64,000 nt of DNA from a phage: sequence record OZ335958.1; one strand, given 5' to 3'. The notes under the pieces are model-generated. The model ran no database searches. It saw only the letters and a program-made list of their open reading frames with translations, and had not been told where the DNA came from. Positions within the stretch are counted from its first letter, which is position 1. Every line of letters begins with the position of its first letter. This document shows positions 9,572 to 47,606 of this stretch, in pieces. A program made the position numbers and the translations under genes.

Positions 9572-9600
9572 ATCAAATCCTCAAAGGCAATTCATATGTT

Positions 9601-22444: not shown

Positions 22445-22482
22445 ATAGTTGTATAGTACCATAAAGCTTTATGCTTGTAAAC
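22445..22482 (-). promoter_or_regulatory. T4-type early promoter candidate
   Basis: gttgatagttgtatagtacc...cttgtaaaccgttttgtgaaaaaatttt; near-identical to the motif at 37440-37470. Confidence 0.45.
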
Positions 22483-25259: not shown

Positions 25260-25433
25260 TTAAATGACGTTTTCAATAAAATTCTGAAGCTTTGTGTGAG
25301 CATCAACCATGATTTTCATTTCTTCCTTTGCGAAAGCTGTACCTCTTTCCCTAGCAGAATACTCATAGTCAGAAACTGCGTTAGCATATTCTTCAATTAG
25401 CTTCATTAAAAACATCTGCTTTTCAGTTTTCAT
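25260..25433 (-). CDS. Hypothetical small protein (57 aa, below ORF-track cutoff)
   Basis: Hand translation MKTEKQMFLMKLIEEYANAVSDYEYSAREG... Confidence 0.3.
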   Translation of the reverse strand: MKTEKQMFLMKLIEEYANAVSDYEYSARERGTAFAKEEMKIMVDAHTKLQNFIENVI

Positions 25434-25617
25434 TATTCCACCTAATCATTTCAAGATATTGAACTAACTTAGCTTTGGATTTATCCAAATCCTTTTTAGC
25501 TGCTTCTATACCATCGTATGAGTATCCTTCACAATGCTCAACTGCTAATTGATATGAATCTATTTCAACATCACGTGCTAATTTAATAATTTTTTCAAAC
25601 TGTTCACGTGTTAGCAT
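25423..25617 (-). CDS. Hypothetical small protein
   Basis: 64 aa ORF. Confidence 0.45.
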   Translation of the reverse strand: MLTREQFEKIIKLARDVEIDSYQLAVEHCEGYSYDGIEAAKKDLDKSKAKLVQYLEMIRWNNEN

Positions 25618-25619
25618 AC

Positions 25620-25859
25620 TTAAACTCTCGTATTATGATCGATAATTTCATCAAGAAACATATCTAAAGCTTCTACAGCATTATCAACTTTAGCTTCAAA
25701 TTTTTCAATACCTTTATTTGCAATGCCTGCCGAAAACCAAGCAAAGTCACTAAGTTCCTCATCTGCTTTGCGAATTAAAGCTACCAATTCTTTAATTTTA
25801 TCTGCTTGTTCAATTCTAGTCATTATTCCACCACATATGAAAGAGAGAATATTGCACAC
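25620..25859 (-). CDS. Hypothetical small protein
   Basis: 79 aa ORF. Confidence 0.45.
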
Positions 25860-27050: not shown

Positions 27051-27632
27051 CTAACCGAGCTTTTTAGTTAATTCATTCCAATGTTTTCTACACAAAGAAA
27101 CATAAATTTCATCACCAATACAGATTTGATTACCTTCTTTAACCGGTGTTCCATCTTCCATTAATCGAGCTGTCATAATAGCCTTTTTACCACAATGACA
27201 AACTGCCTTTAGTTCAATAAGTTTATCTGCAATCGCCAAAAGTTCTTTAGAACCTTCAAATAATTTTCCAGCGAAATCAGTCCTTAGTCCATAAGCCATA
27301 ACAGGAACACTATATGTATCAACAATTCGGCTTAATTGATGCACCTGTTTAGTTTTTAAAAACTGGGCTTCATCTACAAATACACAATGAATATCTTTTT
27401 GTGCTTCAGCCCATTTATAGAACTCAAAAATATCCATATCATCCGTAATAATATTCGCTTCCTGCTTAATTCCAATGCGAGAAACGACTTCACAGACAGA
27501 ATCACGAGTATCAATAGCAGGCTTAAGAACTAATACACCCATTCCGCGTTCTTTATAATTATGTGCAGCAGTCAAAAGAGAAGCAGATTTTCCAGCATTC
27601 ATTGCTGCGTAAGTAAAAATTAAACTCGCCAT
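27051..27632 (-). CDS. tk: Thymidine kinase
   Basis: 193 aa, P-loop AAMNAGKSASLL and C-terminal CHCGKKA...C zinc ribbon typical of TK. Confidence 0.9.
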   Translation of the reverse strand: MASLIFTYAAMNAGKSASLLTAAHNYKERGMGVLVLKPAIDTRDSVCEVVSRIGIKQEANIITDDMDIFEFYKWAEAQKDIHCVFVDEAQFLKTKQVHQLSRIVDTYSVPVMAYGLRTDFAGKLFEGSKELLAIADKLIELKAVCHCGKKAIMTARLMEDGTPVKEGNQICIGDEIYVSLCRKHWNELTKKLG

Positions 27633-27641
27633 ATCACCTTC

Positions 27642-27827
27642 TTAAAGCGTATTCACATAAGCTATTAATTCGTTTTCTTTCTTATCAAACCGATCAGCAA
27701 ATTCTTCTTGCTGATCGGGAGATAGCGGGCCGTATTCATCATAAAAGGTGTTTGCTTCTGTATGCTCATCTAGAAGTTCATGGATAAGCTCAAACAATTT
27801 ATCTTTTTGTTCTTTACTCAGACTCAT
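27642..27827 (-). CDS. Hypothetical acidic small protein
   Basis: 61 aa ORF. Confidence 0.45.
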   Translation of the reverse strand: MSLSKEQKDKLFELIHELLDEHTEANTFYDEYGPLSPDQQEEFADRFDKKENELIAYVNTL

Positions 27828-27997
27828 ATATTAATTTCCAGGAGTTTTAAAATAATTCGCTTTTGCTTAAATATTTCCATAGTTAAATGACCAGTATCTT
27901 TTTGACCGATTCCAATGGCAAAACCTTTATTGACAGCGAGTTCAATTAAATTATCAAGCTCACGTAACACTTCATATTGTAACTCAAAACTATTCAT
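27824..27997 (-). CDS. Hypothetical small protein (57 aa), translationally coupled
   Basis: Hand translation MNSFELQYEVLRELDNLIELAVNKGF...; ATGA overlaps at both ends. Confidence 0.35.
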   Translation of the reverse strand: MNSFELQYEVLRELDNLIELAVNKGFAIGIGQKDTGHLTMEIFKQKRIILKLLEINI

Positions 27998-28200
27998 TTC
28001 GGTTTACCTTCTTTAACGAAATCGGGATAAGGATAAAATCCTGAATAAAATCCTTCACCTTTATGATTGATGCATCCTTTATTAGAACAATAGCACCAAT
28101 AATCGAAATCACAAGCCATTTCATCATTACATAAAGCAAAAACAACTGGCCATTCACACTTTTCGCAGTGGGCATTTTTAAGAATACTTGTTTGGCTCAT
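27994..28200 (-). CDS. Cys-rich small protein (gene B), probable zinc binder
   Basis: MSQTSILKNAHCEKCEWPVVFALCNDEMACDFDYWCYCSNKGCINHKGEG; start set at the Met that forms an ATGA overlap with upstream gene A1. Confidence 0.5.
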   Translation of the reverse strand: MSQTSILKNAHCEKCEWPVVFALCNDEMACDFDYWCYCSNKGCINHKGEGFYSGFYPYPDFVKEGKPK

Positions 28201-28382
28201 AACCATGTAACCTTTAAACAATATTCTTCTACGTGTTGTTTACGACCTTTCTTATCAATAAAGGTATATTCAACGAATGTTCCAATATAGTCTTTATCTA
28301 CACCATGTGGACTATTAATTGGGCATTTAGTACGGCAAATGCGTTCCCATTGACGAATAATTTCCACTTTGTTTTTAGTCAT
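28197..28382 (-). CDS. Small protein gene A copy 1 (61 aa, N-terminus created by the duplication junction)
   Basis: MTKNKVEIIRQWERICRTKCPINSPHGVDKDYIGTFVEYTFIDKKGRKQHVEEYCLKVTWL. Confidence 0.45.
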   Translation of the reverse strand: MTKNKVEIIRQWERICRTKCPINSPHGVDKDYIGTFVEYTFIDKKGRKQHVEEYCLKVTWL

Positions 28383-28455
28383 TACATAAAGCAAAAACAA
28401 CTGGCCATTCACACTTTTCGCAGTGGGCATTTTTAAGAATACTTGTTTGGCTCAT
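28375..28455 (-). pseudogene. Truncated 5' copy of gene B (26 codons) generated by the tandem duplication
   Basis: MSQTSILKNAHCEKCEWPVVFALCND then stop at the repeat junction. Confidence 0.5.
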
Positions 28456-28664
28456 AACCATGTAACCTTTAAACAATATTCTTCTACGTGTTGTTTACGA
28501 CCTTTCTTATCAATAAAGGTATATTCAACGAATGTTCCAATATAGTCTTTATCTACACCATGTGGACTATTAATTGGGCATTTAGTACGGCAAATGCGTT
28601 CCCATTGACGAATAATTTCCACTTTGTTTTTAGGATCAAACGGATGCGGGTAATGTACTTTCAT
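28452..28664 (-). CDS. Small protein gene A copy 2 (70 aa, likely ancestral N-terminus)
   Basis: MKVHYPHPFDPKNKVEIIRQWERICRTKCPINSPHGV...; C-terminal 57 residues identical to copy 1. Confidence 0.5.
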   Translation of the reverse strand: MKVHYPHPFDPKNKVEIIRQWERICRTKCPINSPHGVDKDYIGTFVEYTFIDKKGRKQHVEEYCLKVTWL

Positions 28665-29115
28665 AATCCATCACTATTAAATCAATATCAGGAGTAAACA
28701 TGTCGATTAATTTAGAAACCTTATCCCAATCGCCGCCAGCAATACCGCAACCTATACGTGGAATGTAAATTACTGGTTTAAACAAAAGGGTTTCTGCCTG
28801 TAGATTTAATTCTATCATGCAGTTTACTAAAGCACCATAATCAAGATTAGGACCCGGTTCGTATTGTGTATACAGGTTATAGCATATACCAAATCCCGTA
28901 GGGCTATGTTTAAAAACAATAGACATATCGCCTAATTTATCACGAGAACCGTACTCGGTAGTGGTTTTATCTATTTCTAAAATTTTGGGATAGGCTCTTG
29001 CTAATTGACCCGCTACGCCAGAGCCCATTGTGTGGAAGCAATTGCACCCGTGCGCAATAATATTACCTTGAAGAAATAGGGCGACAATATCGCCCTTGAT
29101 ATATTTTACAATCAT
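28636..29115 (-). CDS. Macro-domain protein (ADP-ribose binding/processing fold)
   Basis: 159 aa; KGDIVALFLQGNIIAHGCNCFHTMGSGVAGQLA matches the macro-domain G-D-I ... N-x-x-N ... G-x-G-V-A signature. Confidence 0.55.
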   Translation of the reverse strand: MIVKYIKGDIVALFLQGNIIAHGCNCFHTMGSGVAGQLARAYPKILEIDKTTTEYGSRDKLGDMSIVFKHSPTGFGICYNLYTQYEPGPNLDYGALVNCMIELNLQAETLLFKPVIYIPRIGCGIAGGDWDKVSKLIDMFTPDIDLIVMDYESTLPASV

Positions 29116-30525: not shown

Positions 30526-30804
30526 TTATTCTTTAAATCTAATCAATTTATTCATAGACTTTGAAACTTCTGCACGGACCTCATGTAGGTTTTTAAGCTG
30601 TTCAAGACGCTGCTCATAGTAAGCAATTTCATCTTCTTCGAGACAGTCCTGTGAATCTTCTTTAAGATAACGTGCATAGTCCTGGAAAGCTTTACGGACT
30701 ACTTCTTGGAAGTCATCAAGACTTTGAATTTTCTTAGGAGCAACAGATACACGACGAGGGGCAGTATAATACTCATAACCAAACCCTGCGCTTAATTGAG
30801 CCAT
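30526..30804 (-). CDS. Hypothetical protein (T4 vs.3 position; start at internal Met)
   Basis: ORF-track 30526-30846 trimmed to Met 15 giving a TAATG junction. Confidence 0.45.
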
Positions 30805-31106
30805 TAATATTTTTCCTCTGGTTGGAACACAGCACGACAAGCCCACATACTAGCTTCTTTGAGTTTCGTTTTAGCAATAGTTAACTGATCGAGGCTTTCA
30901 GCATAATTCTTTGCGAATTCGTAGTCTTCACAATTATCTAGTGCTTCCCAGAATTCATCATATAAAGCGTCAAAGATAAGTCCTAAACGAACTTCAGCGT
31001 CTTTGATAGCATTCACTTTATCGATTTTCTCTTCAGTGTGCGGCTTATAACCTTTAATATCTTCAATCATATTTGACTTCCTCGCCCGTTCCCAAATCAT
31101 ATTCAA
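30804..31106 (-). CDS. Hypothetical helical protein (T4 vs.4 position)
   Basis: 100 aa ORF. Confidence 0.5.
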
Positions 31107-38872: not shown

Positions 38873-38948
38873 TGGTCGAGGCAGTAGGGATCGAACCTAC
38901 GACCCAGGACTTAGAAGGTCCTTGCTCTTCCTTCTGAGCTATGCCTCG
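38873..38948 (-). tRNA. tRNA-Arg (anticodon UCU)
   Basis: Hand-folded cloverleaf: acceptor CGAGGCA/UGCCUCG, anticodon loop CUUCUAA, T-loop UUCGAUC, CCA encoded. Confidence 0.8.
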
Positions 38949-38952
38949 GATT

Positions 38953-39027
38953 TGGCGGACGTGATAGGATTCGAACCTATAACCAATCGCTTAACAGGCG
39001 ATCGCTCTGCCATTGAGCTACACATCC
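38953..39027 (-). tRNA. tRNA-Asn (anticodon GUU)
   Basis: Acceptor GGAUGUG/CACGUCC, anticodon loop CUGUUAA, T-loop UUCGAAU, CCA encoded. Confidence 0.75.
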
Positions 39028-39031
39028 AAAT

Positions 39032-39118
39032 TGGTGGGGAGTGATGGAGTCGAACCACCCGAGTCGCAATGACAATGGATTTACAGTCCACACCGCTACC
39101 TCTACGGGATAACTCCCC
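39032..39118 (-). tRNA. tRNA-Tyr (anticodon GUA), long variable arm
   Basis: Acceptor GGGGAGU/ACUCCCC, anticodon loop ACUGUAAAU, T-loop UUCGACU, CCA encoded. Confidence 0.75.
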
Positions 39119-39127
39119 AAATTAATT

Positions 39128-39202
39128 TGGTGGCCCTGGGTGGAATTGAACCACCATCTGGCGATTATGAGTCGCTTGCTTGAACCTTCCAGCTACAGGG
39201 CC
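39128..39202 (-). tRNA. tRNA with anticodon CAU (Met, or Ile if lysidine-modified)
   Basis: Acceptor GGCCCUG/CAGGGCC, anticodon loop CUCAUAA, T-loop UUCAAUU, CCA encoded. Confidence 0.75.
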
Positions 39203-39203
39203 T

Positions 39204-39279
39204 TGGTGCTGATTGACGGAATCGAACCGCCGACCTTCTCATTACAAGTGAGTTGCTCTACCTACTGAGCTAAATCAGC
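39204..39279 (-). tRNA. tRNA-Thr (anticodon UGU)
   Basis: Acceptor GCUGAUU/AAUCAGC, anticodon loop CUUGUAA, T-loop UUCGAUU, CCA encoded. Confidence 0.8.
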
Positions 39280-39284
39280 AAAAC

Positions 39285-39374
39285 TGGCGGAGGCGATAGG
39301 ATTTGAACCTATGAGTCGCCGGAGCGACTGCCGGTTTTCAAGACCGGTGCATTAAACCACTCTGCCACGCCTCC
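39285..39374 (-). tRNA. tRNA-Ser (anticodon UGA), long variable arm
   Basis: Acceptor GGAGGCG/CGCCUCC, anticodon loop CUUGAAA, T-loop UUCAAAU, CCA encoded. Confidence 0.8.
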
Positions 39375-39376
39375 AG

Positions 39377-39450
39377 TCTCCATACAAGGATTTGAACCTT
39401 GGACCTCCTGATCCCAAATCAGGCGCTCTACCAAACTGAGCTACACGGAG
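39377..39450 (-). tRNA. tRNA-Pro (anticodon UGG), CCA not encoded
   Basis: Acceptor CUCCGUG/UAUGGAG, anticodon loop UUUGGGA, T-loop UUCAAAU; abuts tRNA-Ser as in the T4 Pro-Ser dimeric precursor. Confidence 0.75.
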
Positions 39451-39460
39451 TAAATTAAAT

Positions 39461-39534
<74 letters not shown>

Positions 39535-39539
39535 AAATT

Positions 39540-39626
39540 TGGTGCGAGAAGTGGGACTCGAACCCACAAGGAAATCATTCCGCAGCATTTTAAGTGCTGT
39601 GCCTTTACCAATTTGACCATTCTCGC
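39540..39626 (-). tRNA. tRNA-Leu (anticodon UAA), long variable arm
   Basis: Acceptor GCGAGAA/UUCUCGC, anticodon loop CUUAAAA, T-loop UUCGAGU, CCA encoded. Confidence 0.8.
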
Positions 39627-39627
39627 G

Positions 39628-39700
39628 CTGGGAATAAAGGACTCGAACCTTTGCATCCTGGAATCAAAATCCAGTGCCTTACCAACTTGGCTAATTCCCA
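39628..39700 (-). tRNA. tRNA-Gln (anticodon UUG), CCA not encoded
   Basis: Acceptor UGGGAAU/AUUCCCA, anticodon loop UUUUGAU, T-loop UUCGAGU; abuts tRNA-Leu as in T4 Gln-Leu precursor. Confidence 0.75.
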
Positions 39701-45304: not shown

Positions 45305-45895
45305 ATGCTCTTTACATTTTTTGATCCGATTGAATATGCGGCCAAAACGGTGAATAAAAACGCGCCGACTATTCCTATGACAGATATTTTTAGAAACTAT
45401 AAAGACTATTTCAAACGTGCTCTTGCAGGATACCGCTTACGCACTTATTATATTAAAGGTTCACCACGTCCGGAAGAATTAGCAAATGCTATATATGGAA
45501 ATCCGCAGTTGTATTGGGTTTTATTGATGTGTAATGATAATTATGATCCGTATTATGGATGGATTACTTCGCAAGAAGCTGCTTATCAAGCATCTATACA
45601 AAAATACAAAAACGTAGGTGGAGACCAAATAGTATATCATGTGAATGAGAACGGTGAAAAATTTTATAATTTAATATCATACGATGATAATCCATATGTT
45701 TGGTATGACAAAGGCGATAAAGCTAGAAAATATCCTCAATATGAAGGAGCACTTGCTGCGGTCGATACGTATGAAGCTGCTGTTCTTGAAAATGAAAAAC
45801 TTCGTCAAATAAAAATAATAGCAAAATCAGACATCAATTCATTTATGAACGACCTTATACGTATAATGGAGAAATCTTATGGAAATGATAAGTAA
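45305..45895 (+). CDS. 53: Baseplate wedge protein gp53
   Basis: 196 aa MLFTFFDPIEYAAKTVNKNAPTIP; matches T4 gp53. Confidence 0.9.
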   Translation: MLFTFFDPIEYAAKTVNKNAPTIPMTDIFRNYKDYFKRALAGYRLRTYYIKGSPRPEELANAIYGNPQLYWVLLMCNDNYDPYYGWITSQEAAYQASIQKYKNVGGDQIVYHVNENGEKFYNLISYDDNPYVWYDKGDKARKYPQYEGALAAVDTYEAAVLENEKLRQIKIIAKSDINSFMNDLIRIMEKSYGNDK

Positions 45896-47606
45896 TAACC
45901 TTAATTGGTTTGTTGGTGTTGTTGAAGATAGAATGGACCCATTAAAATTAGGTCGTGTTCGTGTTCGTGTAGTTGGTCTGCATCCACCTCAAAGAGCACA
46001 AGGCGACGTAATGGGTATTCCAACTGATAAATTACCATGGATGTCAGTTATTCAACCTATAACTTCTGCAGCAATGTCTGGAATTGGAGGCTCCGTTACT
46101 GGTCCGGTAGAAGGAACTAGAGTCTATGGTCATTTTTTAGACAAATGGAAAACTAACGGAATTGTCCTTGGCACGTATGGTGGAATAGTTCGCGAAAAAC
46201 CTAATAGACTTGAAGGATTTTCTGATCCGACTGGACAGTATCCTAGACGTCTAGGAAATGATACTAACGTATTAAACCAAGGCGGAGAAGTAGGATATGA
46301 TTCGTCTTCTAATATTATCCAAGATAGCAATCTAGACACTGCGATAAATCCTGATGATAGACCGCTATCAGAAATTCCAACTGATGATAATCCAAATATG
46401 TCAATGGCTGAAATGCTTCGCCGCGATGAAGGATTAAGACTAAAAGTTTATTGGGATACTGAAGGATATCCGACAATTGGTATTGGTCATCTTATCATGA
46501 AGCAGCCAGTGCGTGATATGACCCAAATTAATAAAGTTTTATCAAAACAAGTTGGTCGTGAAATTACCGGAAATCCAGGTTCTATTACAATGGAAGAATC
46601 GGTAACTTTATTTGAACGCGATTTGGCTGATATGCAACGTGACATTAAATCACATTCTAAAGTTGGCCCAGTTTGGCAAGCAGTTAATCGTTCTCGTCAA
46701 ATGGCATTAGAAAATATGGCATTTCAGATGGGCGTTGGCGGTGTAGCTAAATTTAACACAATGTTAACTGCTATGTTAGCCGGAGATTGGGAAAAGGCAT
46801 ATAAAGCTGGTCGTGATTCATTGTGGTATCAACAAACAAAAGGCCGTGCATCTCGTGTTACCATGATTATTCTTACAGGTAATTTGGAATCATACGGTAT
46901 TGAAGTGAAAACACCGTCTAGGTCTTTGTCAGCAATGGCTGCTACTGTAGCAAAGTCTTCTGATCCAGCTGACCCTCCTATTCCGAATGATTCGAGAATT
47001 TTATTTAAAGAACCTGTTTCTTCATATAAAGGTGAATATCCGTATGTTCATACAATGGAAACTGAAAGCGGTCATATTCAGGAATTTGATGATACCCCTG
47101 GGCAAGAACGATACAGATTAGTTCATCCGACTGGAACATATGAGGAAGTATCACCCTCAGGAAGAAGAACAAGAAAAACTGTTGATAATTTGTATGATAT
47201 AACAAATGCTGATGGTAATTTTTTGGTAGCCGGTGATAAAAAGACTAACGTCGGTGGGTCAGAAATTTATTACAACATGGATAATCGTCTCCACCAAATA
47301 GATGGAAGCAATACAATATTTGTACGTGGCGATGAAACTAAGACGGTTGAAGGTAATGGAACTATCCTAGTCAAAGGTAATGTTACTATTGTAGTTGAAG
47401 GTAATGCTGACATTACAGTTAAAGGAGATGCTACCACTTTAGTTGAAGGAAATCAGACTAATACAGTAAATGGAAATCTTTCTTGGAAAGTTGCTGGTAC
47501 AGTTGATTGGGACGTTGGTGGTGATTGGACAGAAAAAATGGCATCTATGAGTTCTATTTCATCTGGTCAATACACAATTGATGGATCGAGGATTGACATT
47601 GGCTAA
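45879..47606 (+). CDS. 5: Baseplate hub/central spike with tail lysozyme domain gp5
   Basis: 575 aa; lysozyme-like middle domain (MAEMLRRDEGLRLKVYWDTEGYPTIGIGHL) and C-terminal VxGxxxxx beta-helix repeats. Confidence 0.95.
   Translation: MEMISNNLNWFVGVVEDRMDPLKLGRVRVRVVGLHPPQRAQGDVMGIPTDKLPWMSVIQPITSAAMSGIGGSVTGPVEGTRVYGHFLDKWKTNGIVLGTYGGIVREKPNRLEGFSDPTGQYPRRLGNDTNVLNQGGEVGYDSSSNIIQDSNLDTAINPDDRPLSEIPTDDNPNMSMAEMLRRDEGLRLKVYWDTEGYPTIGIGHLIMKQPVRDMTQINKVLSKQVGREITGNPGSITMEESVTLFERDLADMQRDIKSHSKVGPVWQAVNRSRQMALENMAFQMGVGGVAKFNTMLTAMLAGDWEKAYKAGRDSLWYQQTKGRASRVTMIILTGNLESYGIEVKTPSRSLSAMAATVAKSSDPADPPIPNDSRILFKEPVSSYKGEYPYVHTMETESGHIQEFDDTPGQERYRLVHPTGTYEEVSPSGRRTRKTVDNLYDITNADGNFLVAGDKKTNVGGSEIYYNMDNRLHQIDGSNTIFVRGDETKTVEGNGTILVKGNVTIVVEGNADITVKGDATTLVEGNQTNTVNGNLSWKVAGTVDWDVGGDWTEKMASMSSISSGQYTIDGSRIDIG

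Follow-up and report, generated by a model that had tools for sequence, protein, structure and literature searches.

A perfect tandem repeat of 255 nt runs through tk.3 and the gene next to it in a T4-like phage genome, and it is probably an assembly or joining artefact, namely an untrimmed overlap between contig ends that was made internal by rotating the genome. We found it in a 64,000-nt stretch of record OZ335958.1 (the window), which belongs to a Tequatrovirus (T4-like) genome and carries gene 46, followed by tk, regB, 10 tRNA genes and baseplate genes. An initial annotation of this DNA had left the choice between a very recent event and an assembly artefact. These were the right alternatives, and the artefact is the better supported of the two.

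Extent of the repeat and its junction

Tandem Repeats Finder reported positions 28124–28633 as 2.0 copies with a period of 255, 100% matches, no indels and a score of 1020. By a base-by-base test (s[i]==s[i+255]), the identity runs from i = 28124 to exactly 28378 and ends on both sides. Copy 1 accordingly spans 28124–28378 and copy 2 spans 28379–28633 by both methods (255 nt each), and the copies abut without a spacer at 28378|28379. Their identity, initially noted between these same coordinates, was confirmed at 255 of 255 positions. The pair is the only long perfect repeat within the 64-kb window and cannot be a product of chance.

The only other tandem repeats in the window lie at 47350–47453 (24-nt period, 71–81% matches) in a plus-strand ORF at 45879–47606. 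They belong to the C-terminal part of gp5 (Gp5_OB, lysozyme and Gp5_C domains) and are the ordinary 8-residue repeats of the cell-puncturing beta-helix. A dispersed repeat of the form 'TGATAGGGTAATAGTATCAC ... TGTAAAC' (plus strand) was also observed between minus-strand genes, with members of this 71-nt family at 9589, 20522, 21963, 41198, 41499 and 41829, and further ones at 22476, 37473, 41535 and 41865. Read on the minus strand, the family resembles the T4 early-promoter consensus (GTTTAC ... TAnnnT). No member was found within or near the 255-nt unit.

The junction at 28378|28379 has 0 nt of microhomology, as the period-255 identity run is exactly 255. Within 25 nt on each side, the longest word common to both breakpoints was 5 nt, out of register and no longer than the background of the window, and no hidden homology or repeats able to mediate a real duplication were found around the breakpoints. 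For junctions placed at random in the same window, 0 nt of microhomology was obtained in 52% of trials and at least 6 nt in 0.3%. Documented T4 and T6 amplifications join at microhomologies of 'typically 6-10 bp', or 2–10 bp in earlier work (PMC9391042; PMC13096335).

These data bear on a first alternative, a real, very recent and selectively neutral tandem duplication of 255 nt, which we regard as unlikely. It would have originated by illegitimate recombination or a template switch during T4-type recombination-dependent replication and been fixed by a single-plaque bottleneck. The repeat is indeed present in the sequence itself, and an age of only a few generations would fit its perfect identity; however, its breakpoints have neither microhomology nor homology nearby, which sets it apart from the documented T4 events. 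Homology-free illegitimate recombination is known, and we counted this against an artefact.

Gene content of the unit and the extra reading frames

tk.3, the next gene and their neighbours all lie on the minus strand, in an early-gene run with the order tk ... tk.3, tk.4, vs, regB. The intact tk.3 in the ORF list (A2; 28452–28664, minus strand, 70 aa) has its native 5′ end, which overlaps the end of tk.4 (28636–29115, minus strand), a macro-domain gene (PF01661 Macro, phrog_335) located immediately upstream in the same direction. Its product matched PF23832 DUF7202 over positions 1–70 of 70 with 126.9 bits (cut-off 27) and belongs to phrog_2008, and a homologue is annotated as tk.3 in LR746311. 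The N-terminus of A2 (MKVHYPHPFDPKNK), which had been proposed to be ancestral, is borne out by this full-length match and by the homologues. The second parental gene is an intact homologue of RB32ORF111c (B; 27994–28200, minus strand, 68 aa), the product of which matched PF23895 Phage_zn_bind over positions 1–68 with 101.3 bits (cut-off 27; phrog_2306) and which is likewise annotated in LR746311. It is followed on the minus strand by a small gene of 57 aa (27997–27824), a small gene of 61 aa that adjoins tk (27827–27642, Pfam DUF7438) and tk itself (thymidine kinase; 27051–27632, PF00265), the downstream landmark of the same early-gene run. Both parental genes are intact and keep their native upstream contexts, so a duplication would be tolerated, in favour of a real event.

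In the direction of transcription, the unit begins at the second base of tk.3 codon 11, takes in the remaining 182 nt of this gene up to its stop and extends over the first 77 nt of the RB32ORF111c homologue, the two parts sharing a 4-nt ATGA overlap. The tk.3 part of the unit comprises codons 11 (partial) to 70 plus the stop and lacks the first 31 nt (10 codons and 1 nt); its RB32ORF111c part comprises 25 codons and 2 nt. Both breakpoints cut coding sequence, in tk.3 codon 11 and in ORF111c codon 26. The unit had previously been read as a complete first gene plus 25 codons of the second, which is right for the second gene apart from the additional 2 nt and wrong for the first, since its first 31 nt are absent.

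Two further reading frames of the ORF list lie between the parental genes on the minus strand. The first, B′ (28375–28455), has 26 codons (MSQTSILKNAHCEKCEWPVVFALCND) and a TAA; it corresponds to the first 26 residues of the Phage_zn_bind protein and keeps only the first CxxC of this zinc-binding protein. That it is a fragment of B had been recognised from the start, with its stop placed at the junction, whereas the TAA (28377–28375) lies just past it. The second, A1 (28197–28382; 61 aa, MTKNK...), is a copy of tk.3 without residues 1–11 that would cover DUF7202 positions 12–70 only, and its stop overlaps the start of intact B (ATGA). The A1 ATG (28382–28380) was originally thought to be created at the junction. 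We found instead that the triplet pre-exists out of frame in intact B (28127–28125, AATGAT) and that the junction (28379|28378) only places it in frame with tk.3 codon 12. A 77-aa ORF in the same frame as A1 starts at 28430. In an exact-protein look-up among 153 billion gene positions, neither A1 (61 aa) nor the 77-aa junction ORF was on record.

The A1 ATG overlaps the B′ stop (ATGACTAA), an arrangement that resembles genuine T4 gene junctions and that we counted against an artefact. We also considered this stop/start overlap as a sign of design and rejected it, as the ATG is already present in gene B. An in-frame ATG has a one-in-three chance, and its combination with an early stop is not improbable in AT-rich sequence.

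A second alternative is that a real duplication has been kept by selection, the benefit on some host (against a defence system, for instance) coming from a higher dose of Tk.3 (DUF7202) or from a new product. Candidates for such a product would be A1 with its remodelled N-terminus, the out-of-frame fusion of 77 aa and B′, the CxxC peptide of 26 residues, and A1 would be translated by termination-reinitiation at the overlapping stop and start codons, which could allow coupled translation. We consider this very improbable. Codons 1–10 of tk.3 are missing from the unit, among them those for HPFDP (part of an HPFDPKNK motif). HPFDP falls within the residues 1–11 that A1 lacks, and every full-length Tk.3 homologue in our alignment had it, in three phage subfamilies and at identities as low as 41%. 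No Shine–Dalgarno sequence was found before A1, and promoter-like sites inside the unit gave only chance-level matches when compared with the shuffled expectation. Further points against selection are that there are just two copies, that the microhomology signature is missing at the breakpoints and that tk.3 and RB32ORF111c have no known function. Overall, there is no functional logic to the event, which is a point for an artefact: the conserved N-terminus of tk.3 is cut off, and both a promoter and, for the extra copy, a ribosome-binding site are missing.

If the duplication were real, A1 would be translated at best by termination-reinitiation, B′ (which would exist only in this case) would be a 26-residue N-terminal fragment and the dose of intact Tk.3 would not be doubled. 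For a neutral duplication, B′ and the truncated A1 would be passengers, soon removed by homologous recombination between the copies. T4 recombination is very active, and with 255 nt of perfect homology a real duplication would be quickly lost without selection.

The locus in relatives and its neighbourhood

BW-1, the public record closest to the window, matches it with 98.4% identity over 24 kb. The alignment of the two is interrupted precisely at 28378|28379 and resumes 255 nt further back, and is otherwise colinear with few small indels. We counted this colinearity outside the repeat in favour of an artefact; that the rest of the assembly looks clean is at the same time a point for a real duplication. 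The 1.48-kb locus was matched by 709 phage records at one place each (single copy), and each of the matches listed (n = 40) spans 1226 nt compared with 1481 nt of the query. Similarly, 10 genome or metagenome contigs with an identical Tk.3 hold a single copy, and their alignments break at exactly 28378|28379 and resume 255 nt earlier in the same way. A search of IMG/VR, JGI and GTDB with the first 50 or 81 nt of the unit returned one IMG/VR contig, again single copy and not identical. A 44-mer across the junction was absent from INPHARED phages, RefSeq E. coli genomes and PLSDB plasmids, and a 35-mer was absent from IMG/VR, JGI metagenomes and GTDB genomes.

The initial annotation had suggested looking for coexisting single- and multi-copy forms among relatives; only the single-copy form was found in the 709 phage records and 10 contigs. 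No multi-copy or intermediate form was present in any relative checked, which argues against selection, and the occurrence of the repeat in no other genome or metagenome among the collections searched argues against a neutral duplication as well. With these results, the earlier description of the gene consequences was nearly right, and its proposal of tk.3 as a candidate dosage-selected factor is unsupported: the duplicated gene is partial, it has neither a Shine–Dalgarno sequence nor a promoter, the junction shows no microhomology and no relative checked has a multi-copy form. Our literature search returned no report on tk.3 or on a duplication at the tk.3 locus.

More broadly, tblastn with Tk.3 against the phage collection returned 840 places in 838 records. 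Up to two of these records contain a second copy or fragment of DUF7202; they are probably from phages distant from the window. We also came across a metagenome contig of 353 kb with the T4-like locus (ENA ERZ724095, NODE_1_length_353259), about twice the size of a Tequatrovirus genome, which may be a concatemeric over-assembly and points to the occurrence of 'more than 100% of the genome' artefacts among phages of this group.

The surroundings of the repeat show features of their own. DUF7438 is encoded by three adjacent small genes (57, 64 and 67 aa) at 25260–25820 on the minus strand and by the 61-aa gene at 27642–27827. These genes (mobD.x/tk.1 region, 2.5 kb from the repeat) are an old, diverged tandem array, and the four paralogues indicate that whole-gene tandem duplication shaped the tk neighbourhood in the past. 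Such diverged tandem paralogues in the same early region are in favour of a real duplication. An 88-aa gene at ∼30802–31068 on the minus strand, between regB and a glycyl-radical gene, has the Pfam domain Acb2_Tad1_hairpin in all relatives. This is an anti-CBASS sponge family, which marks the neighbourhood of the repeat as an accessory or counter-defence region. The location in an accessory early-gene locus, with the macro-domain gene adjoining and the Acb2-family gene nearby, is a point for selection. Further along, 38873–39700 on the minus strand holds the 10 tRNA genes (Arg, Asn, Tyr, Met, Thr, Ser, Pro, Gly, Leu and Gln), as in T4-like relatives.

Origin and meaning of the repeat

T4-like (Tequatrovirus) genomes are circularly permuted, and the assembly history that we infer behind the repeat builds on this property. 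An assembler would write the circle as a linear contig with its last bases repeating the first, the length of the overlap being set by the assembler k-mer or the read length. The copies would come to lie side by side if this contig was re-opened at the conventional T4 start without trimming, or if two overlapping contigs were butted together. The expected outcome would be a perfect, spacer-free repeat at an arbitrary site through two genes, with no breakpoint homology and no counterpart in relatives. The true locus would then be a single-copy run of tk.4, tk.3 (DUF7202), RB32ORF111c (zinc-binding), two small genes and tk, in which ATGA overlaps would couple the translation of the genes and early or middle promoters upstream would drive their transcription.

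In a circular MEGAHIT contig, the self-overlap has a length of exactly k. The largest k-mer of this widely used assembler is 255, a setting used in practice, including for phage viromes (PMC7691681; bioRxiv 10.1101/2025.05.16.654412). This coincidence of the repeat length with an assembler limit argues against a neutral duplication; since k = 255 is a minority setting, the match could itself be due to chance. Untrimmed contig-end overlaps of length k are a recognised artefact of phage assembly (127 bp for SPAdes; PMC5923482), and annotation guidance recommends checking duplicated regions and re-opening T4-like genomes at the rII genes (PMC8785237). The orientation of the window is that of the T4 map and of T4-convention records, in which tk.3 sits at about 57–60 kb, consistent with a re-opened record. 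We counted two further points against an artefact. Assemblers collapse repeats more often than they create them, and T4-like phages make tandem duplications, with the DUF7438 array nearby, so that a real event is biologically plausible.

The repeat appears to behave like an untrimmed circularisation overlap. It shares with the 127-bp SPAdes overlaps (PMC5923482) the perfect copies, the arbitrary position with respect to genes, the lack of breakpoint homology and the absence of the repeat from relatives; in those cases it is the software that determines the length, and they occur in circularly permuted genomes, among them those of T4-like phages. In contrast to them, the copies are adjacent inside the sequence and not at its ends, which requires an untrimmed re-opening or joining step, and the length is 255, not the common 127, 141, 77 or 55.

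T4-like phages are known to generate tandem repeats, in favour of a real duplication, and T-even phages have been proven to adapt by segmental amplification, in favour of a selected one (PMC9391042; PMC13096335). We therefore compared the repeat with the two documented systems. Amplification of T4 dmd-tifA under toxIN selection (Srikant, Guegler and Laub 2022, PMC9391042) is likewise head-to-tail and in an accessory early region, but its units are kilobase-sized and contain whole genes, in several copies joined at 6–10 bp microhomologies and accompanied by compensating deletions. Here, we have 255 nt, two partial genes, two copies and 0 nt of microhomology; the gain of 255 nt is small enough to need no compensating deletion. 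The 718-bp tRNA-Tyr-segB repeats by which T6 escapes Septu (PMC13096335) come closer, with a short unit and a boundary that truncates a gene (segB loses 28 residues). They are, however, promoted by a homing endonuclease, show microhomology between the unit ends, include a complete tRNA, are multi-copy and were experimentally selected, and none of these distinguishing features was seen at the 255-nt repeat. What the repeat has in common with both systems is head-to-tail geometry only, and it shows neither junction microhomology nor a complete selected element.

Stocks of T2, T4 and T6 that were maintained separately over decades show no differences beyond SNPs and indels of ≤14 nt (PMC8573959). 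Spontaneous fixed duplications of this size are therefore uncommon, which speaks for an artefact and against a neutral duplication. Outside the T-even phages, the idea of transient tandem amplification as a dosage adaptation, invoked by the initial annotation, is shared with the 'genomic accordion' at poxvirus K3L, which Elde et al. are said to have described in 2012 and in which a complete gene with its promoter reportedly reaches many copies under a defined selection. No intact product could gain in dose from the present unit. Of the three readings, dosage selection is thus the weakest, because there is no gain in intact Tk.3 dose and the repeat would be quickly lost without selection.

Whichever origin is correct, the repeat does not open a long-standing question. 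It is doubtful that this is a natural Tequatrovirus in which a partial tandem duplication, independent of homology, took place only a few generations ago and left the parental genes intact. Tandem duplication is already well documented for T-even phages, and such an event would add a modest example whose one unusual trait is the missing microhomology at the junction. Between the parents it would place a new coupled pair, consisting of a CxxC peptide of 26 residues and a DUF7202 protein with a remodelled N-terminus, and it would give a snapshot of how T4-like phages begin to build arrays of small, paralogous early genes like that of DUF7438. If the repeat is instead an untrimmed contig-end overlap, as is probable, 255 bases and two ORFs of the record are spurious and should be removed, and phage comparative genomics should not take internal 'duplications' of this kind as evidence of gene amplification.
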